Positions 15,871-63,003 of a stretch of DNA of 64,000 bases are shown piece after piece. This DNA is from a virus. Taxonomy: Duplodnaviria; Caudoviricetes. A program made the position numbers and the translations under genes. The notes below the pieces were generated by a model. It was not told the origin of the DNA and did not search any database. It worked only from the letters and a program-made list of their open reading frames with translations. Location: the IMG/VR virus record IMGVR_UViG_3300045015_000053; one strand, written 5' to 3'. The first letter of the stretch is position 1. Every line of letters starts with the position of its first letter.

Positions 15871-16350
15871 ATGACGAACAGTTTCGCGGGCTTCAGAGCC
15901 TTCCTTGAGAAGTTCGAGCCGCAGTCCGATAAGGACAAGGACGCTGCGAAGGACCGAATCAACGGAAAAGACAAGTCGATGGACTACCTCGGTGGACTCC
16001 AACGCGAGTTGGGCATCAGGAAGGCCAGCACCCTTGCCAAGATCATTCGCACCACGCCGGAAGTTCCGGCGGGGATGCAGATAGACGGTCTTGATGCGAA
16101 ATACGTTCCTGTCAAGTTCGACCCGAACCTGCGTGGCGGCTCCATGCAGGTTCTCCCAGTGGGCAACGTGATGGTCGCTTCTAAGGACGGACGCGACGTA
16201 CCTCCCGACAAGATCGACCGCAGCAGAAAGCGTGTGAAGAGATCGGGTATTGTGAAAACCCTTGAACGTGGTTGGGGTCCGGCTGTCGCGGCAGCAGCCG
16301 CACGGGATGCCGCCGGTGGCGGTGGCGCTCCTCCGATGCCGGGCATGTAA
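15871..16350 (+). CDS. putative internal head protein (capsid-targeting-like N-terminus)
   Basis: MTNSFAGFRAFLEKFE; TAGATA 5 nt upstream. Confidence 0.6.
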   Translation: MTNSFAGFRAFLEKFEPQSDKDKDAAKDRINGKDKSMDYLGGLQRELGIRKASTLAKIIRTTPEVPAGMQIDGLDAKYVPVKFDPNLRGGSMQVLPVGNVMVASKDGRDVPPDKIDRSRKRVKRSGIVKTLERGWGPAVAAAAARDAAGGGGAPPMPGM

Positions 16351-16360
16351 AAAGGAACTA

Positions 16361-16600
16361 ATGAGAACATTCAAAGACTGGCTCGCAAATGTCGAGAGCA
16401 ACGTTTCCGCTGAAACATCCACAAGCACGGGCGACGTTGCGGGCAACCCCTTCGGTGCGGGCATCCAGCATTACAACCCTAGCCGGGACCAGTACGGCCT
16501 CCTCAAGAAGAAAAAAAAAGACGGAAGCGAAGAGGGGCTAGGCGGTCAGGTGATTCCGATGCGATTCACCGGCGGTAAACCGGCCGGCAGCCGCGAGTGA
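16361..16600 (+). CDS. putative internal head protein (capsid-targeting-like N-terminus)
   Basis: AAGGA RBS; MRTFKDWLANVE; in-frame A9 run at 16511-16519. Confidence 0.65.
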   Translation: MRTFKDWLANVESNVSAETSTSTGDVAGNPFGAGIQHYNPSRDQYGLLKKKKKDGSEEGLGGQVIPMRFTGGKPAGSRE

Positions 16601-16605
16601 CTATA

Positions 16606-16977
16606 ATGCCTCCGTCAAAAACGGAGGCATTAGTTATTGGCATGAACGAACAGAACGACGAAAAGCTCGCCGAACAGGTCGTCTGGGGGCAGAAGAACCT
16701 CGACCGCGTCAACTGGATCTGGGAACACATCGAAAAAATCTGGGACGGCTACCGGGAAGCTCGGACCAACCAGTCGCTCGAAGCCGCTCAGAATTTTGCG
16801 GCTTGTCAAAACAAAGAAATTGCTTTACGCTATCCCGAATACCGAATCGGCGTGAGAAGGCTTCTCATGCTGCTAGAAAAGCGTTTCCAACAAGGAGCCG
16901 AGCATGTCCGAGAACACCACTGCGGAACAGTACGATGTGATGACTCTCCTGCCCAACAAAACGATCAAACTGCTTGA
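16606..16977 (+). CDS. hypothetical protein
   Basis: About 123-aa ORF overlapping the thyX start. Confidence 0.55.
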   Translation: MPPSKTEALVIGMNEQNDEKLAEQVVWGQKNLDRVNWIWEHIEKIWDGYREARTNQSLEAAQNFAACQNKEIALRYPEYRIGVRRLLMLLEKRFQQGAEHVREHHCGTVRCDDSPAQQNDQTA

Positions 16978-17812
16978 CTACGGTCACGCAACGCTGGTTG
17001 ACTGCATGCCCCGTTTCGCGCCGGTCGGGTACACCGCCGACGCCGCCATCGTTCAGGCCGCTCGCGTTTCCTACGGCGACGGCACCAAGAAACTCTCCGA
17101 GGATCGCGGGCTGATCCGCTACCTGATGCGGCACAGTCACACTACGCCGTTCGAGATGGTCGAGTTCAAGTTCCACTGCAAGATGCCGATTTTCGTGGCG
17201 AGACAATGGATCAGGCACCGTACCGCGAACGTGAACGAGATCAGTGGTCGGTACTCGGTCATGAAGGACGAGTTCTACAAGCCGGACGCGGCCGGCATCC
17301 GCCGACAGTCCAAGACGAACAAACAGGGCGGCGACACGCCTATCGACTTCGATACCGCCGCCGACTACCTCGCGTATCTGGATGAGGTCTGCATCAAGGC
17401 GTACCAGACCTACGAGAAGTACATCGGCGAAGGTGTCAGCCGTGAGCAGGCGCGTATGATCCTGCCGCTCAACCTGTACACCGAGTGGTACTGGAAGATT
17501 GACCTCCACAACCTGTTCCACTTCCTGAGCCTCCGGTGTGACGCTCACGCACAGGAAGAAATCCGCGTCTTCGCCAACGCGATGCTAGAATTGATCAGCC
17601 CGCTCGTTCCGTACTCCGTCGAGGCGTGGAACGACTACCACTTCCGTCGTCAGGGACTGATCCTGACGCGGCTCGAAGTAGAAGCTCTCAGGAAGATGCT
17701 CGGTGATTCTACGCCGCTGCAAATCGAGAGCGACAACAGCCGCGAGAAGGAAGAGTGGAAAGGCAAACTGGCCCGTCTGGGGATACAAAAACCGTTCGAG
17801 GAGAAATCATGA
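16904..17812 (+). CDS. thyX: FAD-dependent thymidylate synthase
   Basis: AARVSY, RHSHTTPFE, ThyX motif RHRTANVNEISGRY, ARMILP, AQEEIR. Confidence 0.95.
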   Translation: MSENTTAEQYDVMTLLPNKTIKLLDYGHATLVDCMPRFAPVGYTADAAIVQAARVSYGDGTKKLSEDRGLIRYLMRHSHTTPFEMVEFKFHCKMPIFVARQWIRHRTANVNEISGRYSVMKDEFYKPDAAGIRRQSKTNKQGGDTPIDFDTAADYLAYLDEVCIKAYQTYEKYIGEGVSREQARMILPLNLYTEWYWKIDLHNLFHFLSLRCDAHAQEEIRVFANAMLELISPLVPYSVEAWNDYHFRRQGLILTRLEVEALRKMLGDSTPLQIESDNSREKEEWKGKLARLGIQKPFEEKS

Positions 17813-18261
17813 GCGAAAGAGCAGGCAAGTGGCAACTCGCGTTGTCCGTGCTGATTCTGTTGAGTGTCGGCTTCATCATCTACCGAAGCTTCCACCCGTT
17901 GGCGTTCTCAAGCGATTACTCGCCGACGAACGACCAAGTCACCACGGACATCATCGGGAAGTCCGTGGCCTTGCCACAAGGACAGGTCTGGGGGTTCAAC
18001 CCGGATCAACGACTCGATGTCAAGGTCATCGGCCGTCGTCAGGTTGATTACGACGGCGTCGTGGTGACAGTCGAACTGAACGCTTCGGTCAATTTCCCGC
18101 CCCCGCCAAAAGAAGGCCCGAACGCGCCGAAGGCGGGCGATCCGCCGCCGCCCAAGAAAGCGACATTGAGCGGGATGGCGAAGGTGTACTACGAGAGGCA
18201 CAACGGGGCGTGGTACTGTACCAACGTCGAAGGCATCAACCTAAAAGTACAGGCCGAGTGA
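17809..18261 (+). CDS. membrane-anchored hypothetical protein
   Basis: N-terminal hydrophobic segment (WQLALSVLILLSVGFIIY). Confidence 0.7.
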   Translation: MSERAGKWQLALSVLILLSVGFIIYRSFHPLAFSSDYSPTNDQVTTDIIGKSVALPQGQVWGFNPDQRLDVKVIGRRQVDYDGVVVTVELNASVNFPPPPKEGPNAPKAGDPPPPKKATLSGMAKVYYERHNGAWYCTNVEGINLKVQAE

Positions 18262-18464
18262 TGTGCGTCCGAACCTGCTACTACCTAGTTTGCACGAACT
18301 GTAACAATCAGTTCATCGACCGTCAGTACGGCTCGTACTTCAGCAGCGAGGAAGAGGCGAAAGAGCAGGCGAAGACGAGAGGATGGAAAACGGACCAGAG
18401 GGTCGAAAACGGGTCACTCTGGGACTTCTGTCCGAGATGTCAAAAAGAAAACCCCGGCGATTAG
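18261..18464 (+). CDS. small zinc-ribbon protein
   Basis: CTNC...CPRC. Confidence 0.65.
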   Translation: MCVRTCYYLVCTNCNNQFIDRQYGSYFSSEEEAKEQAKTRGWKTDQRVENGSLWDFCPRCQKENPGD

Positions 18465-18481
18465 GCCGGGGTTTTCTTTTT
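18442..18481. terminator. bidirectional intrinsic terminator
   Basis: AAAAAGAAAACCCCGGC/GCCGGGGTTTTCTTTTT stem between convergent genes. Confidence 0.88.
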
Positions 18482-18492
18482 GTTGCACTGGA

Positions 18493-18660
18493 TCAGCGAC
18501 GGATGTTCACGCGGGTGCCGCCGAACAAACCTTGACGAACGACCACGTTGTTTCCACCGACTTGGACGCGGTTGCCGAACAGACCCTGACGGACCACGAC
18601 GTTGTTGTTTCCAACGGCCACGCGGTTGCCGAACAGACCCTGACGAACGACCACGTTATT
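18493..18660 (-). repeat. three 54-bp tandem coding repeats
   Basis: GCCGAAC anchor at 18520, 18574 and 18628. Confidence 0.85.
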
Positions 18661-19350
18661 GCCGCCACCGACGACCACGTTATTGCGGCCGACTGCAACC
18701 ACGTTGCGACGAACCACAACCGGGTTGGCGACCGCAACTACGTTGCGACGGACCACGACGTTGTTGGCGAACGCTACGCGGTTGACCACGACGGCGTTGC
18801 CGAATCCGACGTGGCTCGCACCGAAGGTGCTGAAGCCGTAGTTCGGGGCTGCCGCGAAGGATGTCCCGTAGGTCGGGGCTGCGAAGGCCGTTCCATAGGT
18901 CGGGGCTGCGAAGCTGACTGACGGGCATGCCGGGGCTGCGAAAGGAGCGGCCATCGGGTAGTTCGGGGCTGCTGCGACCGGCGGGCATACGCAAGCCGGG
19001 GCTTCAGCCGCCGGTGGGATGTACGGGATCGGAGCCGCTGCTACCGGCTGTGCGCACGGGACCGGAGCCGCGAACGGAACCGGGACGGCGTAAGGGACTG
19101 CATACGGTACTGCTGCCACAGCTACGTTGTGGCCGTACCCGCCGAATGCGAAGTTGTTGTGCGACGAGAACGCTACGCGGTTCACGGCGACAACCGGGGC
19201 CGCAACAGCCACACGGCTGACGACGACGGCGTTGTTGTTACGAACGACGACTCTGTTGCCCACACGGAGGCCGTTGTGAGCCTGCGCCACCGATGCAGAT
19301 CCGAAGACCACCGCAGCGACCAGAGCTAGTGAGGCGAAAAGCTTCTTCAT
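18493..19350 (-). CDS. secreted low-complexity V/N/G/R/A/P repeat protein
   Basis: Signal peptide ending AQA; 18-aa repeats NNVVVRQGLFGNRVxVGx; only one acidic residue. Confidence 0.8.
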   Translation of the reverse strand: MKKLFASLALVAAVVFGSASVAQAHNGLRVGNRVVVRNNNAVVVSRVAVAAPVVAVNRVAFSSHNNFAFGGYGHNVAVAAVPYAVPYAVPVPFAAPVPCAQPVAAAPIPYIPPAAEAPACVCPPVAAAPNYPMAAPFAAPACPSVSFAAPTYGTAFAAPTYGTSFAAAPNYGFSTFGASHVGFGNAVVVNRVAFANNVVVRRNVVAVANPVVVRRNVVAVGRNNVVVGGGNNVVVRQGLFGNRVAVGNNNVVVRQGLFGNRVQVGGNNVVVRQGLFGGTRVNIRR

Positions 19351-19406
19351 AATTCTCCTTGTGTGAGTGAAGTTCTCTCTGAAGTTATGTATGCCGCTGC
19401 GGTCAA

Positions 19407-20180
19407 TTATCGACCGTTAAGCCACTCCCTCAGATACTGACGCTCCTCATCCGTGATTTTGTAATTCGACTGTTTCGGTGGCATTCTGCCTGCTTCCACC
19501 TCTGACAACATGGACTTGAACGGTGCGTCTGGGTTCAACACATTGTGCTGGTTGAAAATGACGACATCGCCTTTCGACCCCGGCCCAGTGTGACACGACA
19601 TGCAGTTACGCGCGAGTGCGTTAATAGACGGCTGTGCCAGCGGGCTACGCGGGTTCGGGCGAGAAGCGAGCGGCGGCTGCGGGTTGCCGGTATTGGTCGG
19701 AGCCGGGTAGATCGCCATCGGCGGTCCATCGTCTTCGCCGTTGGCGGCAGCGTCTTGACGACGCATTTCTTCGAGCAGCAATTTAGCCAGTTCCCTGAGC
19801 TTGTCGTTGCTGTTGAAGGCACCGGGGAAGCTCGGCTGAGGCTGTGCCGGCTGCTGGTACGGGCCGTGGTATTGCGGCATGCCCGGCATGGTCGGCTGAC
19901 CGCCGTATGAGTGATAGCCGAACCCCGGCTGAACACCTACTGGCGGAACGTACTGGTATGTGAAGGCCGGGACCACAATCGGCACAGCGACAGGAACGGC
20001 CACAGGGGTGATGATCTCGGTCGCGACCACATCGTGGTGCGGCTTGGTAACGACGACTGGGGCAGGGGTGCAGACGGTGTTGCCACGCACCACCACGCCA
20101 TTTCTGCATTGCGCGTTCACAGTGGAAGTGAACGCTAACATCAGGACTACGCCTGACAGCATTCCGATGAGTGTTCTCAT
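19407..20180 (-). CDS. secreted protein with a C-terminal cytochrome c domain
   Basis: Signal peptide; Pro/Val-rich linker; CMSCH heme motif followed by GRMPP (axial Met). Confidence 0.75.
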   Translation of the reverse strand: MRTLIGMLSGVVLMLAFTSTVNAQCRNGVVVRGNTVCTPAPVVVTKPHHDVVATEIITPVAVPVAVPIVVPAFTYQYVPPVGVQPGFGYHSYGGQPTMPGMPQYHGPYQQPAQPQPSFPGAFNSNDKLRELAKLLLEEMRRQDAAANGEDDGPPMAIYPAPTNTGNPQPPLASRPNPRSPLAQPSINALARNCMSCHTGPGSKGDVVIFNQHNVLNPDAPFKSMLSEVEAGRMPPKQSNYKITDEERQYLREWLNGR

Positions 20181-20209
20181 TTGTTCTCCTTCATAGGGGG
20201 ACACCCTAT

Positions 20210-21907: not shown

Positions 21908-21944
21908 TCTTTGTCTTTCCTCTGCGGCATTGGGCCGCATTCAC

Positions 21945-22625: not shown

Positions 22626-22629
22626 AGTT

Positions 22630-22672
22630 TCACCTTTTCTAATAGAGTGTCACCTTTTCTAATAGAGTGTCA
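22630..22672. repeat. perfect 20-bp intergenic tandem duplication
   Basis: TCACCTTTTCTAATAGAGTG x2 plus TCA; covers the stop and RBS region on the - strand. Confidence 0.9.
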
Positions 22673-23500: not shown

Positions 23501-23501
23501 G

Positions 23502-25815: not shown

Positions 25816-26137
25816 AGTGGTCGTGGTCGCAACACTTGCCGGCCTTCTTGCTTTTGCCGGGACACTTATCGCAGACGCAGTTCTCGCACTTACACTCGGT
25901 ACAGCCGCAGTCTTTGCACCCGTCGCACTTGACGGCGACGGCCGCTTTCACCTTACCTGCGCACTTGGGGCATTTGCAGTTCTCGCACTTGCAGTCCTTG
26001 CAGTCGCACGGGTCGCAGTTGCAGCCTGCCTTGACGCCTAAGACCTTGTTGTGGACGACCGGGCAGTATTTCACCGCCGCGAAGGTGCCACCGACACCGA
26101 GGGCTAGTCCGAGGACTAGGATGAATAGGGTTCTCAT
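25808..26137 (-). CDS. exported or membrane-anchored metallothionein-like protein
   Basis: Hydrophobic N-terminus; two tandem 9-Cys CxC/CxxC modules plus CCDHDH (21 Cys). Confidence 0.7.
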   Translation of the reverse strand: MRTLFILVLGLALGVGGTFAAVKYCPVVHNKVLGVKAGCNCDPCDCKDCKCENCKCPKCAGKVKAAVAVKCDGCKDCGCTECKCENCVCDKCPGKSKKAGKCCDHDHSK

Positions 26138-26227
26138 GTTTGCTCCTTTTGGTTTACGACGCGGCTGCGTCTACTGCCTGACGAAGATGTCGTAACAAGT
26201 TCGTCGCAGTCTCTACATACTGTAGTC

Positions 26228-26521
26228 GTGCCGGTCACAATTATTATGGGCAAGAAACGCTACTCACGTCAACAGATTGCGAAGCTTTCAAGAGGGGGCT
26301 GCTATTTCTGCGGCGAGAGCAACTACGACCTTCTCGACGCCCACCGGGTCATTCCCGGTGCGGAGGGCGGGAAGTACAACGATCACAACATACTGGTGAT
26401 TTGTTCAAACTGCCACCGCCGCACTCATACGGGTTCGATCCGCATAGATAGGAAGTACCTTTCGACATCGGGGAAGTGGGTGCTTCACTGCTGGATCGAC
26501 GGGGAAGAGAAATGGATCTAG
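26228..26521 (+). CDS. small HNH endonuclease
   Basis: CYFCG, AHRVIP..GG, NILVICSNCHRRTH. Confidence 0.85.
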   Translation: MPVTIIMGKKRYSRQQIAKLSRGGCYFCGESNYDLLDAHRVIPGAEGGKYNDHNILVICSNCHRRTHTGSIRIDRKYLSTSGKWVLHCWIDGEEKWI

Positions 26522-26528
26522 GAGTAGC

Positions 26529-26750
26529 ATGATGACTTTTTGGGAGTTCCTCGAAGCCGCACAGACCAAACGGGTCGCGATGTACGGCATCGGCAAGAAC
26601 AAGCGGATGGACAGTTCGCGTTCGCCCGGTCGCCTCGGCGTCTTGTTCAAGGCTGTAAACCCGGCCGATCTGGGCGTGAAGGTCGTTTGGAACATGCAGG
26701 CCGGTAAAGTCGGCCAGAAACCTAAAACGAGTGGCGTCATTGGAAAGTAA
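26529..26750 (+). CDS. putative internal head protein (capsid-targeting-like N-terminus)
   Basis: AGGAG RBS; MMTFWEFLEA. Confidence 0.65.
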   Translation: MMTFWEFLEAAQTKRVAMYGIGKNKRMDSSRSPGRLGVLFKAVNPADLGVKVVWNMQAGKVGQKPKTSGVIGK

Positions 26751-28193: not shown

Positions 28194-30323
28194 ATGAACG
28201 AAGTTCCTACCAGCAACAAGGCCGTGTCTTTGCTGGACCGGGTAGCCGGTAAGTACGACAAGCGGCAGTTCCAGAAGCTCAACGAAGAGATGAGCTTCGG
28301 CGAATATCTGGAGATGGTCCAGAAGAACCCCCGCATCGTGCGTAACGCACACCAGCGTGTCTTCGACATGATCATGTCGAAGGGGTCGTACACCTTCGAG
28401 CGTTACCGCAAGACCCTGACCCACTACAACTTCTTCGATGACCCGGAAATCCCGATCTTCGACCTCGAAGAACCGCTCGATGAACTGGTGAAGTTCATCA
28501 AGGGTGCGGCCGGCGGGTTCGGCACCGAGAAGCGTGTTCTGCTCCTCCACGGCCCGGTAGGGTCGGCCAAGTCCACGATCCTCCGCTTGCTCAAGCGGGG
28601 TCTGGAGAAGTACAGCCGCACCGACGAGGGCGCGTGGTACACCTTCAAGTGGGTCAACCTGCCGACCGGCTCGGACGGGATCTACACCCACACCGAAGAC
28701 GAATGCCCGATGCACGAGGAACCCCTCAAGCTGATGTCGCTTGAGCGGAACCCCGGCGAAACCAAGTCCATGCGCGAAGCGTTCGTGGACGAACTCAACG
28801 TCACGCTGTTGGAGAGCGTGCCGGAAGAGAAACGGACCACACAGTACACGCTGCGGGTCAAGGGCGAACTGAACCCCCGCTGCAAGAAGTTCATGAGCGA
28901 ACTGCTGAAGCGGTACGGCGGCGACTGGAAGCAGGTGGTCGAGAAGCACATCCGCGTGGTCCGCAAGGTTCACAGCGAGGCCGACCGCGTGGGCATCGCG
29001 ACGTTCCAGCCGAAGGACGAGAAGAACCAAGACAGCACGGAACTGACGGGCGACATCAACTTCGCCAAGATCCCGCACTTCGGTTCGGACAGTGATCCTC
29101 GCGCCTTTAACTTCGACGGAGAGTTCTGCGTCGGCAACCGGGGCATTGTCGAGTTCATCGAAATGCTCAAGTTGGAGACGGCGTTCCTCTACGACCTCCT
29201 CGGAGCGTCCCAAGAGCAGAACATCAAGCCCAAGAAGTTCAGTCAGATCGGCGTGGACGAGATCATCATCGGCCACACCAATCAAGCCGATTTCGACAAG
29301 CTCAAGAACAACCAGTTCATGGAAGCCCTCCGCGACCGGACGGTGAAGATCGACGTTCCCTACGTCACCCGCTGGAAGCACGAGATCAAGGTGCTGGAGC
29401 AGGACTACGGTTCCGGCAAGGTGCGTCAGCACGTTGCGCCACACACCCTCGAAATCGCCGCCCTGTGGGGCGTCCTGACGCGGTTGCAGGACGACAAGGA
29501 CGGCAAGATCGACCTGATCCAGAAGGCCGAACTGTACGACGGGAAGCTGCTTCCGGGGTGGACCGAGGACTCGGTCAAAGAACACATCATGAAGCACCCC
29601 GGCGAGGGCATGACGGGCGGCGTGAGCGTGCGGTACATCCAAGACAAGATCTCGAACTGCTTGTCGGCCCGCCACGACTACATCAACTTCTTCATGGTCT
29701 TGAACGAGATCAAGGAAGGGTTGAGCAACCACAGCCTGATCACTCACAAGGACCAGATCAGCCGCTACCTGACGTGCGTGGAACTCTCCATCAAGAAGCT
29801 GGACGAGATCCTGAAGGCCGAGGTGCAACGCGCACTCGTCGGCGACGAGGACGCAATCGTCCGGCTGTGCGCCAACTACATCGACAACGTGATGGCGTAC
29901 ATGTCGAAGGCGAAGGTGAAAAACAAGATCACCGGCCGCGACGAGCCGCCGGACGAGCGTCTGATGCGGAACATCGAGAGCCGCATCAAGATCCCCGATC
30001 AGGGGGCCGACGACTTCCGCCGGACCATCGCCGCGTTCATCGGCGATCTGGCCCACAAGAAGCAAGAGTTCAAGTGGGACAGCAATCCGCTCCTCAAGAA
30101 AGCCCTCGAAGCGAAGCTCTACGAGGACACCAAAGACCACATCAAGCTGTCGGCCCTCAACGTGAGCGGTGCGACCGTGGTGCAGCCCGACCTGCAAGAA
30201 AAGATCGACGCGATCAAGACGCGGTTGATCAAACAGTACGGCTACAACGAGCAGTCGGCCAGTGACGTACTCGACTACGTCGGCTCGATCTTCGCTCGCG
30301 GCGACCTCGCCGAGAAGGACTGA
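28194..30323 (+). CDS. prkA: PrkA/YeaG AAA+ family (annotated serine kinase)
   Basis: AHQRVFDMI, LHGPVGSAKST, PKDEKNQDSTELTGD, GNRGIVEFIEMLK, EALRDR. Confidence 0.93.
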   Translation: MNEVPTSNKAVSLLDRVAGKYDKRQFQKLNEEMSFGEYLEMVQKNPRIVRNAHQRVFDMIMSKGSYTFERYRKTLTHYNFFDDPEIPIFDLEEPLDELVKFIKGAAGGFGTEKRVLLLHGPVGSAKSTILRLLKRGLEKYSRTDEGAWYTFKWVNLPTGSDGIYTHTEDECPMHEEPLKLMSLERNPGETKSMREAFVDELNVTLLESVPEEKRTTQYTLRVKGELNPRCKKFMSELLKRYGGDWKQVVEKHIRVVRKVHSEADRVGIATFQPKDEKNQDSTELTGDINFAKIPHFGSDSDPRAFNFDGEFCVGNRGIVEFIEMLKLETAFLYDLLGASQEQNIKPKKFSQIGVDEIIIGHTNQADFDKLKNNQFMEALRDRTVKIDVPYVTRWKHEIKVLEQDYGSGKVRQHVAPHTLEIAALWGVLTRLQDDKDGKIDLIQKAELYDGKLLPGWTEDSVKEHIMKHPGEGMTGGVSVRYIQDKISNCLSARHDYINFFMVLNEIKEGLSNHSLITHKDQISRYLTCVELSIKKLDEILKAEVQRALVGDEDAIVRLCANYIDNVMAYMSKAKVKNKITGRDEPPDERLMRNIESRIKIPDQGADDFRRTIAAFIGDLAHKKQEFKWDSNPLLKKALEAKLYEDTKDHIKLSALNVSGATVVQPDLQEKIDAIKTRLIKQYGYNEQSASDVLDYVGSIFARGDLAEKD

Positions 30324-34207: not shown

Positions 34208-34231
34208 CGTGCGGTCCAAGTAGATACGGTC

Positions 34232-34924
34232 ATGAAAAAGAAGAAACCCGTTCTACCGCCGTCATACGACATCTTCGACGCCCTGAATCAAGTCCACCGC
34301 GACAGCATCTGTACGGAAACCAGAGAGATCTGGCTGCACAGTACGCACGCGGGCGACGACGAACCGGGCGTCGAATATCGTATGGCGACGATGTTCCTCA
34401 AGAACCTCAACCTTCTTGAGAAGGACGGGAGCCGCCGGCCCATACTCGTTCACATGCACGTTACGGGCGGCGAGTGGAACGACGGGATGGCGATCTACGA
34501 CGCCATCAAGCTCTCCCCCTGTCCGATCACCATCATCGCCTACGCTCAAGCGTCCTCGATGTCGGGAATCATCCTCCAAGCCGCCAAAACCCGGCTGATG
34601 ATGCCCAACTGCGAGTTCATGGCTCACACCGGCAGTCTCGACACCAACAACGAAACCCTTGTCGCTTTCAAGCTCGCGCAGCGGAACATGGAGTGTCACA
34701 AGCTGATGCTCTCGATCTTCGCCGAGCGGTGCATGAAGGTCGAAAAGTACAAGGGTCTGGCTCTCGAAGAGGTCATGGCGAAGATCGACTGGTGGATGAA
34801 GAACGACGGCGAGATCAACATCCTCGCGGCCGAGGCCGTCGAGAACGGGTTCGCCGACGCCGTGATCGGAAGCAAAGAATACCCCACGGTTTATGACGCC
34901 TGGGGACGAATCATGTCCGGCTGA
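34232..34924 (+). CDS. clpP: ClpP-like protease subunit
   Basis: TGG...GMAIYDAIK, AQASSMSG (nucleophile Ser), RLMMPNCEFMAH (His), AAEAVENGFAD. Confidence 0.8.
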   Translation: MKKKKPVLPPSYDIFDALNQVHRDSICTETREIWLHSTHAGDDEPGVEYRMATMFLKNLNLLEKDGSRRPILVHMHVTGGEWNDGMAIYDAIKLSPCPITIIAYAQASSMSGIILQAAKTRLMMPNCEFMAHTGSLDTNNETLVAFKLAQRNMECHKLMLSIFAERCMKVEKYKGLALEEVMAKIDWWMKNDGEINILAAEAVENGFADAVIGSKEYPTVYDAWGRIMSG

Positions 34925-36725: not shown

Positions 36726-37964
36726 TCACATGTCGTCGTCTTCTTCCCACGGCATCTTTTCATGCTCGTCGTCTTCGTCGTCCGAGTCGTCGTCGTCTTC
36801 GTCATCGAGGTCGTCATCCCCGCTTTCATTGTCGTCATCTAGACCCAGATCGTCGCTGAAGTCGAGTTTGTGGTCGTCATCCCCGCCTTCATCTCCCATC
36901 CCGCCCTTGCCCGGAGGTGGCGGCGGGCTGTCTTCGTCCCCGCCGGCCATGTCGTCCATCTCCCCGCCGAGGTCCGGCTTCTCGCCGCTGTCTCCGAGGT
37001 CGTCGCCGCCCATGTCACCCTTGCCCGGTGGCGGTGGCGGCATGTCTTCGTCACCGCCTTCGCCCGGACCACCTTCATCATCCAGATCGAGGTTGTCTCC
37101 AACATCGCCGCCGTCTTCGTCCCCTTCGCCGTCGTCGTCTAGATCGAGGTCGTCCTCTTCGTCGCTGACTTTACGTTTCTCTTCTGACGGGTCAACGTCT
37201 TCGATGTCCATGCTGTCGTCGTGGGCCGGCTCGTCAACTTCTTCGCGGATCGCATGTTCGAGACGCCGCTGGAACGCTTCGCCCTTTTTGCTTTCGATGA
37301 TCTTGGCGAGAGCTTTGAAAGCCTCTGGGATCGTCAGCAAGTCGTTCACGAGAGCTTGAACCCCTCCGCTCCGGTTGATTTCGCGGACGAGGGCGTTACG
37401 CAAGTTGGCGTTCTCGTTGGCGAGGTACGCGACGTACCGAATCGCCTGAACCGGGTCCGGGTAGAACGCGCCGGCCGAGTGCGCAACGACGTGCGGTGCC
37501 TTTTTGCTCTTAACGTTCTCGGTCAGCCCCTTCTTGACGTGCTTGGCGAATTCGGCCGTCGTCATGCCTTTGGTGGCTTTGAGGAACGATTCGGTGGTCG
37601 TGGGACCGCCCTTCGGCCAACTTGCCACGGACTTTCCGCCGGACACGCCCTGTGTGGACTTGCTCACTCCGTTTTTGCCACCGTACCAGCCGTCACCCGG
37701 CTCGTACACGAGTCCTTTGTCGCCCATGTGTGCGAAGCCGCCCTTTTCAGCCTTCTTGGGGGCTTTGTCGGTGCCGCTCTTGTACGGCGCGGGCGTACCT
37801 TTGCTGCCGACGTTGGGGACTTCCCAATTCTTGCCTTTGGTCGAGCCTTTCTTGGGGCTTTTCTCTTTTGGGCCTTTGTAGTCTGGGGTCGCTTCGACTG
37901 GCGGTGCGGTGACGACTTTCCCTTTAGAGGAAAGGTACTCTTTGAATGTCTTGAACGATTTCAT
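36726..37964 (-). CDS. putative internal head/core protein: basic N-half, very acidic D/E/G/P C-half
   Basis: GGAGG RBS; MKSFKTFKEYLS; repeats DEDMPPPPPGKG and DEDSPPPPPGKG. Confidence 0.75.
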   Translation of the reverse strand: MKSFKTFKEYLSSKGKVVTAPPVEATPDYKGPKEKSPKKGSTKGKNWEVPNVGSKGTPAPYKSGTDKAPKKAEKGGFAHMGDKGLVYEPGDGWYGGKNGVSKSTQGVSGGKSVASWPKGGPTTTESFLKATKGMTTAEFAKHVKKGLTENVKSKKAPHVVAHSAGAFYPDPVQAIRYVAYLANENANLRNALVREINRSGGVQALVNDLLTIPEAFKALAKIIESKKGEAFQRRLEHAIREEVDEPAHDDSMDIEDVDPSEEKRKVSDEEDDLDLDDDGEGDEDGGDVGDNLDLDDEGGPGEGGDEDMPPPPPGKGDMGGDDLGDSGEKPDLGGEMDDMAGGDEDSPPPPPGKGGMGDEGGDDDHKLDFSDDLGLDDDNESGDDDLDDEDDDDSDDEDDEHEKMPWEEDDDM

Positions 37965-37974: not shown

Positions 37975-38412
37975 TTATTGCAATGGCCGTGCGGCAGGAC
38001 CACTGCTCTGGCCGATGAGTGTATTTAGGAAGACTTCGACCAACTCGTCCAAAGTTGTTTGATTGGTCTTCAACTCGCTCAGTCTCTTCGCGATGTATGT
38101 GACGATGCTGATGTTGGCCGGCTGAACCGCCGCTTGGAAAATGGCGACCGCGATCTTCGGAACCAGATTCCGTTCTCGCGCGGCTTCGTAAATGGCTTCA
38201 TAGGCGGCGTCAAGGCGGTTCTTGTCCTTCGGCACCTTACTCAGTCTCTTGACGAGTTCTTGTGCCGCCCCCATCGCTTTGCTGCTGGCCGAGGGTGGGG
38301 AATACGGTTTTTCGCCCGTGCCGGACGCAACACGGTCCAGTCTGCGTTCACCGCGACTCGGCACCAGACCGGCGAGGGCTTCGGCCACCCATTCGGTGAA
38401 CTTCGTTTCCAT
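37975..38412 (-). CDS. putative internal head protein
   Basis: GGAG RBS; METKFTEWVAE. Confidence 0.6.
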   Translation of the reverse strand: METKFTEWVAEALAGLVPSRGERRLDRVASGTGEKPYSPPSASSKAMGAAQELVKRLSKVPKDKNRLDAAYEAIYEAARERNLVPKIAVAIFQAAVQPANISIVTYIAKRLSELKTNQTTLDELVEVFLNTLIGQSSGPAARPLQ

Positions 38413-38458
38413 GCTTCTCCGGTAGAAATCTTTGTCTCGAAGGTATATACTTGCAACT

Positions 38459-38695
38459 ATGATTTCTTTCCGCGAGTATCTGGAACGCGACCGGCTCAAG
38501 AAGCACGTTCGCCACCACAACACGACAAAAGCGTTGGAAGACGCTTTTCCGGGTGAAGAACTGGACAAAGCCAAAAACGCGGTCTATACTAACTGGCGTG
38601 GAAGGAATAAGAGAGCCGCGATGAGGAAATTCATCGCGGACAAGGATACGAAGTGGGCGAATCTTTGGGGTAAGATCCGAAACGACGCTGACTGA
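38459..38695 (+). CDS. putative internal head protein
   Basis: MISFREYLER; TATATA 9 nt upstream. Confidence 0.65.
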   Translation: MISFREYLERDRLKKHVRHHNTTKALEDAFPGEELDKAKNAVYTNWRGRNKRAAMRKFIADKDTKWANLWGKIRNDAD

Positions 38696-53545: not shown

Positions 53546-53918
53546 ATTCGTCTGGACGCCTGAGATGGACCTGTGGTTCATCTCAGGCGATTTCTTTGAG
53601 CAGCCCATCCCCCGCGAAAAAGAGTACCTGCTCAAGTATTTCGAGTCGCGGCTCCAGCGGCAGTTCGTGAGATACTTTTTGTTGTTTCGGTCGCCGCGAA
53701 ACTTCACCGATCACACCGGCCTTCGGGTTCTCCCGCTCTGGCTTCGCAAGCTCCGCAAGAAGATGAACATTCTCGAAACCGCCCACGCGAAGGCGAAGGC
53801 GGATTTTGATTTGGAGCTTGTAGCAAAGATCGAAACCGGCGTATATAAGGTATGTCACTCCTCACGTTCAAAGACTGGCGCAAAAAGCAAAACGAGTCCA
53901 GTCCACAAACCCGTTTGA
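53532..53918 (+). CDS. hypothetical protein
   Basis: 128 aa; overlaps both neighbours. Confidence 0.55.
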   Translation: MSRIEFVWTPEMDLWFISGDFFEQPIPREKEYLLKYFESRLQRQFVRYFLLFRSPRNFTDHTGLRVLPLWLRKLRKKMNILETAHAKAKADFDLELVAKIETGVYKVCHSSRSKTGAKSKTSPVHKPV

Positions 53919-54076
53919 TGCAAGGTATCGCGCGAGGCAACTACCCGCCGACCGCGTCCCCGTTCACCCACTCCACGCCGGCTCCGTGGCAGTTGGACGC
54001 CAACGAAAAGGCGCTGAAGAAGGGCAAAAAGCGTAAGCATCGGAAGAAAAAGGGCGGTGCGAAAAAAAAAGACTGA
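53852..54076 (+). CDS. putative basic internal head protein
   Basis: MSLLTFKDWRKKQNE; Lys-rich tail; TATATA 4 nt upstream. Confidence 0.7.
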   Translation: MSLLTFKDWRKKQNESSPQTRLMQGIARGNYPPTASPFTHSTPAPWQLDANEKALKKGKKRKHRKKKGGAKKKD

Positions 54077-54655: not shown

Positions 54656-54677
54656 CGATCTGCCGCTGGCCGTCACA

Positions 54678-55001: not shown

Positions 55002-55006
55002 GCTTC

Positions 55007-55801
55007 ATGGGATGCTCGAACTCTAATATGTCGGTCAACGCCACGTTTCCGACCGTCGATACAAACACCTGCCCCGACCGTCTCGGATGTCCTCCGGGCG
55101 TTTGCCCCGATTTCACAATCCGCCGTCACGACACCAAGCCGCCCTTCAAGGTACATGTCGAAGACTGCGACGGCGCTTTGGATCTGCAAGACAAGGTCGT
55201 TGAGTTCAGCATGTGGGCGAAGGCCAAGCTGAAGACCGACATCACCACTTCCGACTTCACCCTCTCTTTTGCCGACCGCATCGGATTCGATCAGGTACTC
55301 GAAGGCGACATCTTGATCTTCGACCGCGCTCGCGGCCCGGAACACATGAAGGTGATCGGGTTCGATGAGGACAACTACATCGTCATCGTCCAGCGGGCCG
55401 TTAACGGCTCGTCACCCTCGAATTGGAAGAAGGGGACCGTCATCAGGATCATGAAGGAGATGAGTGCGCCCGCCTCGTCCGAACTGATCCTCCAAGACAT
55501 CGTCAACAAGGACGGTACGACGGACAAAGACCAGTTGACCGACAGTTTCCTCGTCTACGAGTGGCAGCCGAGGGACACCTGCCTGCCGGGGTGCTACTGG
55601 GCCGAGTTCAAACTACTTTCTTTGAAGTTGATGGAAACAGACCCAGGTGGGGACGAAGACGACACTACTATAACGATGACGATTTCTCCTTCCGACGCCG
55701 GATGCAAATTGGGCGAGGGGGTAGAATGGGTTAGACGTTTCCCGGTCAGCGGTGAAGGTTATCTGATTAAGGTGTTCGATAGTCCCACCGCAGAACTATA
55801 A
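55007..55801 (+). CDS. putative virion structural protein (BppU-like N-domain)
   Basis: FTIRRHDTKPPFKVHVEDC..ALDL, YEWQPRDT..PG.Y.AEF; TAGATA box upstream. Confidence 0.55.
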   Translation: MGCSNSNMSVNATFPTVDTNTCPDRLGCPPGVCPDFTIRRHDTKPPFKVHVEDCDGALDLQDKVVEFSMWAKAKLKTDITTSDFTLSFADRIGFDQVLEGDILIFDRARGPEHMKVIGFDEDNYIVIVQRAVNGSSPSNWKKGTVIRIMKEMSAPASSELILQDIVNKDGTTDKDQLTDSFLVYEWQPRDTCLPGCYWAEFKLLSLKLMETDPGGDEDDTTITMTISPSDAGCKLGEGVEWVRRFPVSGEGYLIKVFDSPTAEL

Positions 55802-55813
55802 CGGAGAGGGAAC

Positions 55814-58083: not shown

Positions 58084-58086
58084 AAC

Positions 58087-59256
58087 ATGGTTCCAGACGC
58101 CAAAGAGTTCAACCGGGCGGTCATCGACCGCCTGAAGGGTTCCGGCCCGCCCGTCACCTCGTGTGGCGAGTGGTACGCCGACTTCGTAGCACTGCCGGAA
58201 GACGTGGTCGAAACGGTCTTCGGCACCGCCGGGGTCAACCTGCAATACTTCCTCGGCCAGATGGACCTGAAACACCCCGATCTGCGGGACAACGTCGAAG
58301 AACGGATCTTCAACTCTCATTCGTCTACAACATTCGGCTCAATGGTCGGGCTGGTCAAACTAGCCATCGATTCCAACAAAAAAGAACTGCTGCCGGCCCT
58401 CTCGCAAGTCGATTTCATCCCCCGCGATTTGTACGAACAGGCCGACACCGAAAGACACATCAGGTGCCTGAAGGATGCAGTCACCCGCCAAGAGTATCGC
58501 AAAAACAAGAAATCTCAGGCCGTTGACACCGCGACGTTCTCGCGGCGCGGCGAAGAGATCTGGAACATGCAGCCCGCGTCGTTCGTTTCTCTGATGCGGT
58601 ACGAGAAGGCTTACGACGAAGAGGTCAAGGCGGCGAAGCACCGTGCGAAGAGGTTCCGCGACCTCGGCTGTGTCGCGATGGCCGGCGAGGTCATGAAGTC
58701 GGTCGAATTGTTCGAGTCGCAACTTTCCGACTCGTATCTCGGCTTCAACCGGCTTACCTTCAACTCCGCGTTGGTGATCCTCGCCAAGTGGCACAAGTAC
58801 GACTTCACCGCGCCGTACATTCTGTCGGCTTGGCCCACCGAGCGGAACTACAGGATCTTGGTTCCCGCCCGTTACTTCGCCGACTACGATTTCTTCGAGA
58901 AGTCCGAAGAACAGGCGATGTGCTGGAACTACAGCCCACGGATCTACCCGCTCGCGGATCTGGAACCGTTGACGCCCGACATGAAAGAAATCATCGGGCT
59001 GTGCGAGGAACACCCGCAGTACGGCAACCGGCCGCTGTTCGATCACTATGTCGTGATGTTGCCGGGCGTAGATTATCCGTCGTTTCGCGAGAAGTCATAC
59101 ACGTTCCGAAGCGACACCGGCTCTTTGACGAGCTTCGATGACTACAACAAAGCTCGGCACTCTCTCGACCGCACGCTCTTGCACGCCGGCGCGTTCAGCG
59201 GGGTCGTGATGGGCGAACGCGACGGCAAATGCTACTTCATCTCAGTTTGGAGTTAG
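58087..59256 (+). CDS. hypothetical protein
   Basis: 389-aa ORF with typical codon usage. Confidence 0.75.
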   Translation: MVPDAKEFNRAVIDRLKGSGPPVTSCGEWYADFVALPEDVVETVFGTAGVNLQYFLGQMDLKHPDLRDNVEERIFNSHSSTTFGSMVGLVKLAIDSNKKELLPALSQVDFIPRDLYEQADTERHIRCLKDAVTRQEYRKNKKSQAVDTATFSRRGEEIWNMQPASFVSLMRYEKAYDEEVKAAKHRAKRFRDLGCVAMAGEVMKSVELFESQLSDSYLGFNRLTFNSALVILAKWHKYDFTAPYILSAWPTERNYRILVPARYFADYDFFEKSEEQAMCWNYSPRIYPLADLEPLTPDMKEIIGLCEEHPQYGNRPLFDHYVVMLPGVDYPSFREKSYTFRSDTGSLTSFDDYNKARHSLDRTLLHAGAFSGVVMGERDGKCYFISVWS

Positions 59257-59259
59257 ATC

Positions 59260-59595
59260 ATGAATCTCATCGTTACCGAAAAGGCGTTGAAGGAACTGCG
59301 GCACATCATGGCCGATCAAAACTTCGACGCCAACGTCACCTACGCCCGCCTCACCATCCTCGGCGGCGGATGTTCCGGGTTCCAGCACAAGTTCCACCTT
59401 GATGAGAACTTCAATGAGAAGACCGACATCCTTGTGGAGATCGATGGGCTGAAGTTCGTGACGGACAAGAGGTCGGCTCTGTACCTCGACGGCACCACGG
59501 TCGATTTCCTCGAAGATTTGAACAAGAGGGGTTTCAAAATGAGCAATCCCTCGATAAAGTCAACCTGTGGATGCGGTTCGAGTTTTTCAATGTGA
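59260..59595 (+). CDS. iscA: A-type Fe-S carrier (IscA/ErpA/HesB family)
   Basis: GGGCSG, YLDGTTVDF, GFKMSNP, TCGCGSSF. Confidence 0.9.
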   Translation: MNLIVTEKALKELRHIMADQNFDANVTYARLTILGGGCSGFQHKFHLDENFNEKTDILVEIDGLKFVTDKRSALYLDGTTVDFLEDLNKRGFKMSNPSIKSTCGCGSSFSM

Positions 59596-59614
59596 ATCAT
59601 TTCTGGAGATCCAG

Positions 59615-61072
59615 ATGAAGAATTTCATCGACGGCAACTGGACCGATCCGAAGAACGGGGAATCGCTCTCCAAGTTCGACCCCTGTACCGGGAAGGAAGC
59701 CTACAAGGTTCCCAACTCGACGCGAGAAGATGTCGAAGCGGCCGTCTACGCGGCGAAAGCCCGTCAACCCGCTTGGCGGGCGAAGGGCAGGGTTCGTCGG
59801 GCCGAAGTCCTGTCGGACGTGGTCGCCGCCCTGAAGAACAACGTCGATTTGTTCACGAAGCTCATCAGTCTGGAAACCGGCAAGCACCAGAACGAGGCGA
59901 AGGCCGAAGTCCTCGAAAGCCTACACATGCTCGAATACACGGTCGCGCAAGGGCGGGCCGAGTGCGGGCAGTGGCTTCCGTCCGAACTGCCGGAACGCGA
60001 CATCGCGATCATCAGGAAGCCGAAGGGTGTGGTGGGCATCATCAGCCCGTGGAATTTCCCGATGGCAATCGGGGGTTTCTGGTGTGCGGCTCCCGCGTTG
60101 CTCGAAGGTAACGCGGTGGTCTGGAAGCCGAGTGAGAACACGGCACTCGTTGCCGAAGCCGTAGTCAAGATGTACGCGGAGGCGGGTCTTCCGCCCGGTC
60201 TACTCAACCTCGTCCACGGTGGAGGTGTGACCGGCGCGGATCTGGTGAAGGAAGATGTGGACCACATCTGCTTCACCGGCTCACGGGACGTGGGCCAATA
60301 CATCCGCCGCGTGTGCGCTGAAACGTGGGGCAAAACCTGCTCGCTGGAGACTGGGAGCAAGTCTGCCGTCATCGTATTCTCGGACGCCGACGTTGACTTC
60401 GCGGTCAACGCTTGCATTCCAAGCGCATTCAAGACAACCGGCCAGCGGTGCGTTTCCGCTGGCCGGTTGCTCGTACAACGTGATCGGTGGGGCAGTTTCG
60501 TAGACGCCTTCGTCGCCGCCGCCCGAAAGATCACATGGGGCAACCCGTTCCAAGAGAACGCACCGTACTACGGCCCGCTCATCACCGAAAAACAGATGCA
60601 CCGCGTCCTGCGGTACAACCAGATGACCCTGAAGCACGCCCTGCTCGAAGGCAAGTGCGAGGAGATGGACGGCGGCTACTACATGTCGCCGCACATTTAC
60701 AAAGCCGAATGGGACAATCTGGCTCTCGCCGTGCCGCTCCGCGAAGAGGTCTTCGGCCCACACGTCGCCATCATCCCGTTCGACACGGTGGACGAAGCCA
60801 TCAACATCTACAACGACACGCCCTACGGCTTGTCGTTGGGGGTGATTACCCCGGACGCCGTTAAAGCCCGGCAATGTCGTGAAGGGTGCGAGTACGGGAT
60901 GGCCTACTGGAACAACGGGTGTGTCGGTGCGGAGAGCCACGTTCCGTTCGGAGGCGTCAAGGCGAGCGGCTACGGCGGCGCGAGTGCGGCCGGGACGTTC
61001 GACACCACCTCCCACAAAGTTGCGTGGAGCAGCAACTACGGAGAAATCGGGTTCCCGCAAGGTCTGAAGTAA
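59615..61072 (+). CDS. NAD(P)-dependent aldehyde dehydrogenase
   Basis: IISPWNFP, WKPSE, FTGS, LETGSKS, GQRCV, EEVFGP, YGLS, PFGGVK. Confidence 0.93.
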   Translation: MKNFIDGNWTDPKNGESLSKFDPCTGKEAYKVPNSTREDVEAAVYAAKARQPAWRAKGRVRRAEVLSDVVAALKNNVDLFTKLISLETGKHQNEAKAEVLESLHMLEYTVAQGRAECGQWLPSELPERDIAIIRKPKGVVGIISPWNFPMAIGGFWCAAPALLEGNAVVWKPSENTALVAEAVVKMYAEAGLPPGLLNLVHGGGVTGADLVKEDVDHICFTGSRDVGQYIRRVCAETWGKTCSLETGSKSAVIVFSDADVDFAVNACIPSAFKTTGQRCVSAGRLLVQRDRWGSFVDAFVAAARKITWGNPFQENAPYYGPLITEKQMHRVLRYNQMTLKHALLEGKCEEMDGGYYMSPHIYKAEWDNLALAVPLREEVFGPHVAIIPFDTVDEAINIYNDTPYGLSLGVITPDAVKARQCREGCEYGMAYWNNGCVGAESHVPFGGVKASGYGGASAAGTFDTTSHKVAWSSNYGEIGFPQGLK

Positions 61073-61087
61073 ACGGCCGATCAAATT

Positions 61088-61121
61088 AAGAAATCCCGGT
61101 TCGATGACCGGGATTTCTTGT
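61088..61121 (+). terminator. intrinsic terminator-like hairpin
   Basis: 13-bp stem AAGAAATCCCGGT/ACCGGGATTTCTT followed by GTTT. Confidence 0.7.
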
Positions 61122-61184
61122 TTGGTAACTACAATAGGTGTCAGGAGAACCTGAATCTGAAAGACAACAAGAAAAGGATGAGAC

Positions 61185-61565
61185 ATGTCCAAGCACAAGC
61201 CACTGATCACTCTCGAAGGTTCCGACGTTCCGGGCCTCATTCTCGCCAACGGCGAGACGGTGACGAAGAGAATCCTCTCCGTCAACCCCTGCGGCAGTCA
61301 AGTTTTGGTAGAGCTTTTGACTTACAACGAACAGAACCCAAGTACCGTCTTGACGAGCGGCAAGTTCAACAAGGACGAAGCACGTCACGGTTGGGTCCGC
61401 AAGTTGGGGCCGAGTGTGAAGACCGCTGACTGGAACTTCAAGGCGGGCGACCGCGTCCTCATCAACGGCACCGGCACCCCGGTCCCGAAGTTCGGCGACA
61501 GCGACCGCGAGTGGGTGCTGCTTGAGCCGTACACGCTCAAGGCGGTTCTGGAGGAAGGGTACTAA
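61185..61565 (+). CDS. groES: GroES/Cpn10-like co-chaperonin
   Basis: NPCGSQVLVE, GWVRKLGP, KAGDRVL. Confidence 0.65.
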   Translation: MSKHKPLITLEGSDVPGLILANGETVTKRILSVNPCGSQVLVELLTYNEQNPSTVLTSGKFNKDEARHGWVRKLGPSVKTADWNFKAGDRVLINGTGTPVPKFGDSDREWVLLEPYTLKAVLEEGY

Positions 61566-61577
61566 GCACGAGGTCAG

Positions 61578-62645
61578 ATGGACTACTACCAAGTCTTCGA
61601 CCTCCCCAAAACGGCAACACAGGACGAGATCACCAAAAAGTATCGCGTTCTAGCCAAGCAATATCACCCGGACAGAAATCCGGGTGACAAGGCTGCCGAA
61701 GACAAATTCAAAGAAATCAGTGCGGCATATGACGTGATCGGCGACCCGGAGAAGCGTTCCTTCTACGATGCGCACGGTCACGCACCCGGCCGACGTTCAG
61801 CACCGCCCCCGCCACGACCCAGTACCGTTCAGGCTTCGGACTTCTACAAGTCCGTGTTCAACACGTTCTTCGGCGGGGACGTGAGCGGCCGGCACGTCCA
61901 AGTCCGGCTCGAAATCGATCTCGAAGACACACTCAAAGACATCGTCAGAAACGTCACATACTCCAAACGCAAAACGTGTCCGACGTGTCGCGGGTGCGGG
62001 GCTTCTTCGTTCAAGCCGTGCGGCCACTGCCTCGGCAGCGGCCAAGTCACCAAGACCGAAAACCCGCCGTTCGTTTTCACCGGCCCGTGTCCGCACTGCC
62101 AGGGACAGGGCAAGACCGACGCCGTTAGGTGCGGGGACTGTAGCGGCAGTGGCTACAGTCTGATCAAGGACTGCAACATCGACGTGAAGATCCCGGCCGG
62201 TATCGATCAAGGCATGCAGGTCAGGGTTCGCGGCGCGGGCGAGGCCGGCTCTCCGGGCGAACCGCCCGGAGATCTGTTCGTCGTGGTGTTGATCAAGAAG
62301 CACGAGTTCTTCTCGCGAGAAGGGGCCAATCTCACCATCGAGATCCCGGTCAGTTATTCCACTTTGGTAGCCGGCGGCGAGATCCTGATCCCCACACTCG
62401 ACAAGACCTTCATGAGTGTGAAGGTTCCTCCCGGCACTCAGAACGGCACCCGGTTCCGTCTCAAAGGACGCGGGATGCCCGACATTCAGAAGCCCAAGAA
62501 CACCGGCGACATTCTCGCGTCGGTCAAGTTGGAAGTTCCGCAGGGCGTGGACGACGAGTACAAAGAACTGATCGAGAAGCTGAGAGAGGTCGAGGCCAAG
62601 AACCCGTCGCCGAGGGTGAAAGCATATTCGGATCGCGTCAAGTGA
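61578..62645 (+). CDS. dnaJ: DnaJ (J-domain with HPD, CxxCxGxG zinc fingers, C-terminal domain)
   Basis: DYYQVF, YHPDRN, four CxxCxGxG repeats, IPAGIDQG, GDLFV, IPTLD. Confidence 0.95.
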   Translation: MDYYQVFDLPKTATQDEITKKYRVLAKQYHPDRNPGDKAAEDKFKEISAAYDVIGDPEKRSFYDAHGHAPGRRSAPPPPRPSTVQASDFYKSVFNTFFGGDVSGRHVQVRLEIDLEDTLKDIVRNVTYSKRKTCPTCRGCGASSFKPCGHCLGSGQVTKTENPPFVFTGPCPHCQGQGKTDAVRCGDCSGSGYSLIKDCNIDVKIPAGIDQGMQVRVRGAGEAGSPGEPPGDLFVVVLIKKHEFFSREGANLTIEIPVSYSTLVAGGEILIPTLDKTFMSVKVPPGTQNGTRFRLKGRGMPDIQKPKNTGDILASVKLEVPQGVDDEYKELIEKLREVEAKNPSPRVKAYSDRVK

Positions 62646-63003
62646 TGTGGCAGGACTGAACTTTCGACGGCATCTTGCTCCTGTCGGTGGGGTTCCTCTG
62701 GAACACCACCGTCGCCGTTTTACCGAGTCCCGGTGATCCCTTGATCCGGCGGAACTGGTCCCATGTGAAGAACAGTTGTGTGCCGTCCTCCATCTGCATC
62801 ATGATGGGATTTTTGTCTTTGATAAGGAGTGCGATTTTACCGACTTTTGTTAGACTGGGAAGTGCCAGATCCATGCTCGGTAGGGTGACCGGCTGACTCA
62901 TCATGTTGTCGGGCTGTTCGCTCCCGGTCCAGTTCGACGGCAATATCGCCGCAGAACCGCCGTTGAGATACTCCATTAGTGTCACGAAGCCTTTGAAGTT
63001 CAT
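62638..63003 (-). CDS. hypothetical protein with a capsid-targeting-like N-terminus
   Basis: MNFKGFVTLMEYL; TAAATA 7 nt upstream. Confidence 0.6.
   Translation of the reverse strand: MNFKGFVTLMEYLNGGSAAILPSNWTGSEQPDNMMSQPVTLPSMDLALPSLTKVGKIALLIKDKNPIMMQMEDGTQLFFTWDQFRRIKGSPGLGKTATVVFQRNPTDRSKMPSKVQSCHIT

Follow-up and report, generated by a model that had tools for sequence, protein, structure and literature searches.

The stretch analysed here (the window) is the 64,000-nucleotide record IMGVR_UViG_3300045015_000053, a piece of an uncultured huge phage of ~0.5 Mb from a lake, and eight of its genes start with the same kind of short leader peptide on otherwise unrelated proteins. The leader is almost certainly a real shared signal: it is selected at the peptide level, is better conserved than the bodies it stands on, tracks a rare upstream sequence box, and belongs to a lineage with a T4-type head. 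The proposed class would comprise genes usually lying behind a TA(A/T/G)ATA box, whose products carry at the N-terminus a short amphipathic leader, M-x-(T/S/N)-F-(K/R)-(E/D/Q)-(W/F/Y)-(L/V/I/M), with a Glu within a few residues. The best-supported reading, which we hold to be rather likely, is that this leader is a capsid-targeting sequence (CTS) of the T4 type, and the eight proteins are probably packed into the virion. The finding bears on what the heads of uncultured huge phages contain, DNA aside.

The window has a G+C content of 56% and encodes RecA, a DEAD-box helicase, PrkA/DUF444/SpoVR, a split DnaE, a DHH protein, a ClpP-family protein and a DnaJ-like protein. Proteins identical to those of the window were found on public metagenome contigs of sizes up to 475,914 bp. 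IMG/VR did not contain an exact 40-mer taken from the window. A megablast search with 20 kb of the window against phage records gave no match, and the sole similar phage record is LR756511.1, an uncultured genome of 595 kb and 42% G+C whose DnaE is 41% identical to that of the window. A closer relative, the IMG/VR contig IMGVR_UViG_3300013121_000017 (G001; 261,680 bp, 55% G+C), was reached by an IMG/VR scan with the 53852 protein; its positions 192,313-259,320 are collinear with 59-63,925 of the window, with protein identities of 40-89%. Both LR756511.1 and G001 were taken whole, and the genes of LR756511.1 were called.

The original prediction had listed eight open reading frames (ORFs) with similar N-termini, starting at 15871 (+), 16361 (+), 26529 (+), 37964 (-), 38412 (-), 38459 (+), 53852 (+) and 63003 (-), by which they are named below, and all eight starts match the N-termini quoted for them. 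A codon-usage gene call of the window recovers all eight, and public gene calls agree on the start of 37964, 38412, 38459 and 63003. Six of 81 genes have the pattern F.[DE][FWY][LIV] among their first 11 residues, compared with 0.05 expected from its rate in the gene interiors of the window (once per 17,851 positions). Because a motif should not be tested on the data that suggested it, a position matrix was built solely from 26 leader-bearing N-termini of LR756511.1, with the consensus M-K-T-F-K-E-W-L-E-A-K-E. On this matrix 16361 scores 21.8, 37964 17.7, 26529 14.0, 38459 11.6, 63003 11.0, 53852 6.1, 38412 3.0 and 15871 -0.4; a score of at least 10 is reached at just 3 of 16,798 interior positions of the window proteins. 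When the 796 ATG codons with at least 40 codons after them in the six frames of the window were scored, nine reached at least 3, namely seven of the eight genes, the second Met codon of 26529 (26532) and one internal Met of PrkA. Enrichment at N-termini over shuffled controls was likewise found: with residues 2-20 of each N-terminus shuffled and composition kept, thresholds of 3, 6 and 10 gave 7, 6 and 5 genes against shuffle means of 0.42, 0.13 and 0.02.

The consensus proposed in the original prediction, (T/S)F(K/R)(E/D)(F/Y/W)L..E, holds as a shared motif and is too strict in its wording, for only three of the eight leaders fit it literally. The actual core is aromatic(4)-x-[EDQ]-aromatic(7)-[LVIM], the first aromatic being normally residue 4; four leaders keep this register strictly and four are displaced by -1 to +4 residues. 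The set consists of five strong members, two moderate ones (53852 and 38412) and one atypical but conserved member (15871). Two other candidates were dropped as leaders. Gene 46043 (MSKILGPEFDDWV) fits the first regular expression, and its Phe is not conserved in LR756511.1. The internal EMSFGEYLE of PrkA fits the matrix, as an interior match that recurs in the G001 PrkA orthologue; it lies in the N-terminal domain at window positions 28287-28330 (residue 32 onward, EMSFGEYLEMVQKN) and scores 14.2. Going by bacterial PrkA/YeaG, we read the internal match as a helix native to the PrkA family.

Behind the leaders, the proteins differ. Past residue 15 the eight bodies are mutually dissimilar (no BLASTP E below 0.1), in line with their earlier description as otherwise unrelated, and neither Pfam nor PHROGs has a family for any of the eight proteins. 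Seven of them are 73-159 residues long with an isoelectric point (pI) of 9.1-10.8, the median length of the set being 108 residues, and a pI above 9 is found in 7 of 8 leader proteins and in 15% of the remaining proteins of the window (p = 6e-5). The T4 internal proteins IPI-III have 95-193 residues and a pI of 8.9-9.5. The cargo has the look of DNA-associated internal proteins, small and basic.

The signal resides in the peptide and not in the nucleotides: the codons vary between instances and the peptide recurs in genomes of 42% and 55-56% G+C. The same residue class is written with different codons (TTC/TTT; TGG/TTC/TAT/TAC; CTC/CTG/CTT/GTG), and the leader is enriched at gene starts in LR756511.1 and in G001 too. 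Together with the matrix and the dissimilar bodies, the codon variation bears out the view that the leader is a portable N-terminal signal. All eight genes have syntenic orthologues in G001, and the leader is kept in every one. Between the window and G001 the leaders are identical at 60 of 82 positions (73%) and the remainders at 571 of 1178 (48%), the contrast being greatest in the most drifted bodies, those of 15871 and 38412; single-protein IMG/VR scans with these two gave no relative, and their orthologues were later located by synteny in G001. The leader is carried by 8 of about 81 genes in the window and by 18-28 of 335 in G001, so that the class is genome-wide and makes up about 5-10% of the genes of this huge-phage lineage. 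An exact DNA pattern for MKTFKEW(L/F) was found at nine places in IMG/VR, each of them at an ORF start; three of the five contigs tested carry a gp23-type capsid gene, and completeness estimates for the contigs with this pattern imply genomes of about 390-520 kb.

The leader genes also share an upstream element. The two strands of the 64-kb window together hold just 24 copies of the box TA[ATG]ATA, and the box lies within 80 nucleotides (nt) upstream of 7 of 8 leader genes, compared with 4 of 73 others (p = 7e-7). The leader gene with no box of its own is 16361, which follows 10 nt behind 15871. A TAGATA box at 15860-15865 (+) stands 5 nt before the ATG of 15871, box and spacing being conserved in the G001 orthologue, and another at 26445-26450 (+) stands 78 nt before 26529. 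TAAATA boxes precede 37964 (-) by 57 nt (38022-38027) and the ATG of 63003 (-) by 7 nt (63011-63016), and a TATATA box at 53842-53847 (+) lies 4 nt before the ATG of 53852. A single palindromic TATATA (38444-38449), in the 46-nt gap of the divergent pair 38412 (-)/38459 (+), serves both genes at 31 nt and 9 nt from their respective ATGs. In 15871, 38459, 53852 and 63003 (15865-15871, 38449-38459, 53847-53852 and 63003-63011) the Shine-Dalgarno sequence is weak or absent, and the mRNAs of these four genes may be leaderless or near-leaderless, because the box ends just 4-9 nt before the ATG; several leader genes of G001 likewise have a box close to the ATG. In 37964, 38412 and 26529, by comparison, the box lies farther off and there is a clear ribosome-binding site, GGAGG. 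The association of box and leader recurs in G001 (p = 0.002, strict threshold), where the box also lies 5' of a portal-like gene and of the head operon, and it would fit a late promoter akin to T4's TATAAATA. The box is present and the leader peptide absent at 34232 and at 55028. The former is the ClpP-family gene (ORF 34232-34924, 230 residues), with a TAGATA box 5 nt before its ATG (window 34221-34924), and it apparently shares its promoter class with the leader genes.

The lineage possesses the machinery that such a leader would serve, as found in both G001 and LR756511.1. In G001 the head genes are consecutive: a gp21 protease (PF03420, 6e-29), a 300-residue coiled-coil scaffold-like gene and a gp23 capsid gene (PF07068, 8e-88), preceded by a 616-residue gene. 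The His and Ser motifs known from T4 gp21 (GELDHP and GISSRG) are intact in the G001 protease, and the head-module protease shares 35-42% identity with its counterparts in T4-like cyanophages and T-even phages. LR756511.1 has the same head module plus a gp20-like portal. A leader gene of ~113 residues adjoins the head module, on the opposite strand, in 13 diverse phages of 34-55% G+C, and M1 and F4 of the leader are the sole invariant residues of this family; in G001 a further leader gene stands directly after the capsid gene. A predicted complex between the G001 scaffold (alignment A3) and the leader protein neighbouring the head module (alignment A2) scored 0.16, which is no evidence either way.

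Three further observations concern this module. The scaffold-like proteins of 29 phages (alignment A3; G001 25826-26728) all start M-D-K-I-x-E-A-L-K-K-L-L-P-E, in which the L-x-E is compatible with gp21-type cleavage and recalls MLKEQLIAE of T4 gp22. LR756511.1 has a second gp21-family gene at 242240-243133 (-, within L013), in which the catalytic His motif reads GELGMP in place of GELDHP and a long C-terminal extension is present; it is probably an inactive paralogue. A few kb away from the head module, at L054 (17035-19700) and L065 (9761-11500), stand three consecutive genes of differing lengths, each starting MKTF, and these tandem arrays recall the variable internal-protein loci of T-even phages.

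Through a comparison with T4, it was found that the leader agrees with the known CTS (Mullaney and Black 1996; PMC9026906, PMC3012670) almost position by position. Both are about ten residues long and sit at the extreme N-terminus; T4 has M-K-T-(Y/F)-x-E-F-(I/T), with aromatics at 4 and 7, an acid at 6 and then a Glu, on small, basic, fast-evolving and mutually unrelated proteins, and T4, G001 and LR756511.1 all have a gp21-type (Glu-specific) prohead protease, a scaffold and a gp23-type capsid in the same order. In the T4 record IPII and IPIII start MKTYQEFIAE and IPI starts MKTFKEF; on the huge-phage matrix these score +6.3 and +5.2, above 99.97% of interior positions, whereas T4 gp20, gp21, gp22, gp23, gp24, gp67 and gp68 are all negative. 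The first ten residues of T4 IPIII suffice for packaging, with targeting by residues 4 and 7 and processing by residues 8 and 10 (PMC9026906). When the eight leaders are aligned by their core, column 4 is Phe and column 7 is F/W/Y in all of them, and these are the best-conserved two positions of the leader; the likeness proposed in the original prediction is thus upheld at the two positions that carry targeting in T4. Of 68 pooled leaders, 57 have their first Glu beyond position 7 at positions 9-13, and among the eight 38412 alone has a processing site of the T4 form (V-A-E). There are differences as well: T4 has three carriers, compared with the far larger share of genes here, Trp is the commonest residue at position 7, short (M-x-F) as well as extended registers occur, and the genomes are of 0.26-0.6 Mb.

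By homology with T4 we infer docking, cleavage, packaging and ejection. The hydrophobic face of the leader (aromatic 4, aromatic 7 and Leu 8) would dock the new protein onto the scaffolding core of the prohead, and a gp21-type prohead protease would then cut the leader off after the nearby Glu. The mature small basic protein would remain in the head with the DNA, like T4 IPI-III, and would probably exit with the DNA at infection. For the eight proteins themselves ejection is speculation. So is the anti-defence or host-takeover role for which the original prediction had put them forward, with no sign of an anti-defence activity seen. It is an even bet that in half-megabase T4-headed phages the T4 tag has grown into a general means of loading dozens of different proteins per genome.

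Several points weigh against reading the leader as a T4-type CTS. It is carried by many genes for a virion cargo, and some carriers may not be virion proteins. The match at residue 32 of PrkA indicates that the motif can arise as an ordinary helix. The Glu is usually at position 9 or 12, in the context W-L-E, where T4 has it at position 10 in I-A-E and gp21 cleaves after L/I-x-E (PMC9026906), a rule that W-L-E breaks at P3; in 37964 and 63003 an early Glu is missing from the usual place. The link to the head module comes from the collinear relative G001 and not from head genes of the window's own; no close homologue of the G001 protease was found on the 475,914-bp contig, and an 88%-identical candidate came from other samples. 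A phmmer search of LR756511.1 gave no homologue of T4 gp55 or gp45, and neither was detected in the window, so that the late timing attributed to the box stays a conjecture. Unlike that of the T4 CTS, the role of the leader is predicted from sequence.

These points raise the question of whether another reader could recognise the leader, which might be an address tag for degradation or timing by a ClpP-type protease, for docking to a chaperone such as the phage DnaJ, or for some other intracellular site. The window does encode a ClpP-family protein behind the same type of box and a DnaJ-like protein (61578-62645), and the departure of the Glu from the T4 rule as well as the large share of tagged genes would suit such a reader. 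We know, however, of no N-terminal ClpXP degron that resembles the leader motif. The leader family adjoins the head module in 13 phages, exact-leader matches stand on contigs with gp23-type capsid genes, and the match to the T4 CTS extends position by position to the two targeting residues (PMC9026906). A different reader is regarded as unlikely, though its probability is not negligible.

Another possibility is that the conserved start reflects expression, a close box and a leaderless or near-leaderless mRNA putting the first codons under selection for efficient initiation. The close boxes and poor Shine-Dalgarno sequences of 15871, 38459, 53852 and 63003, with similar cases in G001, are what it would predict. 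However, it is the amino-acid class that is conserved while the codons differ, and this holds across genomes of 42% and 56% G+C; 37964, 38412 and 26529, with a distant box and GGAGG, bear the same peptide; the core of the 37964 family lies 3-8 residues past the Met, which is ill-suited to a signal at the 5' end; and the boxed genes 34232 and 55028 lack the peptide. Selection on initiation is very improbable as the explanation. It is still harder to believe that the likeness is due to chance or to the paralogy of a few duplicated genes with a similar first helix. The matches of 15871, 38412 and 53852 are weak, and the motif was defined after viewing the data. Yet the independently trained matrix finds seven of the eight genes among the 796 ATG-ORFs, the observed counts were never reached in shuffles, the bodies have no detectable similarity, and the leader is enriched in two other genomes, all of which contradicts chance or paralogy.

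The leader has partial parallels elsewhere too. Encapsulin cargo-loading peptides are likewise short, portable and conserved, and bring diverse cargo into a shell of the HK97 fold; they differ from the proposed targeting tag in that most are C-terminal, their binding partner is the shell protein itself, no protease takes them off, and they serve cellular compartments, not virions. The phiKZ-like giants (phiKZ gp175, 201phi2-1, SPN3US gp245; PMC9026906, PMC5694885) pack dozens of different proteins in the head, and use a gp21-related protease that cuts after Glu (PMC9026906, PMC5694885). The propeptides of their head and ejection proteins, in contrast, are long and have no common N-terminal tag, sharing only a short S/A-x-E motif, and their head modules are very distant from that of T4, whereas the protease here is close to those of T4-like phages. 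In the literature, no description of a CTS in huge phages was found.

The individual genes differ in how closely they follow the common form. The best match in the window is 16361 (16361-16600, +), a 79-residue protein with the canonical leader MRTFKDWLANVE, whose G001 orthologue starts MIKFKEWLQKFE; it is probably co-transcribed with 15871, which ends 10 nt upstream. Gene 15871 (15871-16350, +) encodes a basic protein of 159 residues with the atypical leader MTNSFAGFRAFLEKFE and is a weak member by score; its leader is identical to that of the G001 orthologue at 11 of 13 positions, and the remainder of the protein at 35%. The unusual SFAGF start of the 15871 protein is shared by an 898-residue protein of G001 (93733-96429, L114), which begins MNKSFAGFFNERYY and has a box 14 nt upstream, and the two may represent a second leader subtype. 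Gene 26529 (26529-26750, +) encodes a basic protein of 73 residues (pI 10.6 for the whole protein) with the canonical leader MMTFWEFLE, its G001 orthologue starting MMTFAEFMAL, and 38459 (38459-38695, +) encodes a basic protein of 78 residues with the canonical leader MISFREYLE, of which the G001 orthologue retains MISFREYL and the box.

The remaining four genes have displaced registers. Gene 38412 (37975-38412, -) encodes a basic protein of 145 residues with the leader METKFTEWVAE at offset 1, in which EWVAE parallels the EFIAE of T4; the G001 orthologue starts MKKTKFSEWVAS, with 8 of 11 leader residues identical against 23% in the remainder. The very basic 74-residue protein of 53852 (53852-54076, +) has the leader MSLLTFKDWRKKQNE at offset 2, with Arg and not Leu at position 8, and its G001 orthologue starts MALLTFKDWRKQQNE. 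Gene 63003 (62638-63003, -) encodes a basic protein of 121 residues with the short leader form MNFKGFV in register -1, and F3, K4 and F6 are nearly invariant in its family (10 homologues, alignment A4). A helix is predicted at residues 4-12, then a disordered linker and, at 50-120, a small beta domain of moderate confidence; a fold search with this domain gave only weak OB-fold-like matches, every one with E > 0.02, which is a hint at most.

The largest of the eight is 37964 (36726-37964, -), a mostly disordered protein of 412 residues in which the leader core TFKEYL follows a three-residue extension (offset 3). After the leader come a disordered stretch rich in Lys, Pro and Gly, a helical middle and a long poly-acidic tail. 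In the family (12 homologues, to 37% identity, alignment A1) F7, E9 and Y10 are invariant, and the core is placed 3-8 residues past the Met. The predicted fold of this protein is mostly of low confidence (mean predicted local distance difference test, pLDDT, of 46) and unusable for a fold search. At the C-terminus of the family (window 36726-36760) K-M-P-W-E-E-D-D is kept after the very long Asp/Glu/Gly tail (alignment A1), and it may be a second short linear motif.

If the leader is indeed a T4-type CTS, the virion cargo of uncultured huge phages would be readable directly from sequence, and a simple sequence scan would name, for an entire clade of phages of 0.3-0.6 Mb, the proteins that are packaged and probably injected. 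Such a list would define a set of candidates in which to seek early-acting factors and proteins that pack DNA. In the window the cargo would then be made up of new DNA-associated proteins, small and basic, that are delivered together with the genome. Large capsids might also be loaded with foreign proteins by means of the leader as a short natural tag, a use to which the T4 tag has already been put. The targeting mechanism of T4 would, in that case, be far older and in far wider use than one would judge from the three internal proteins of T4.

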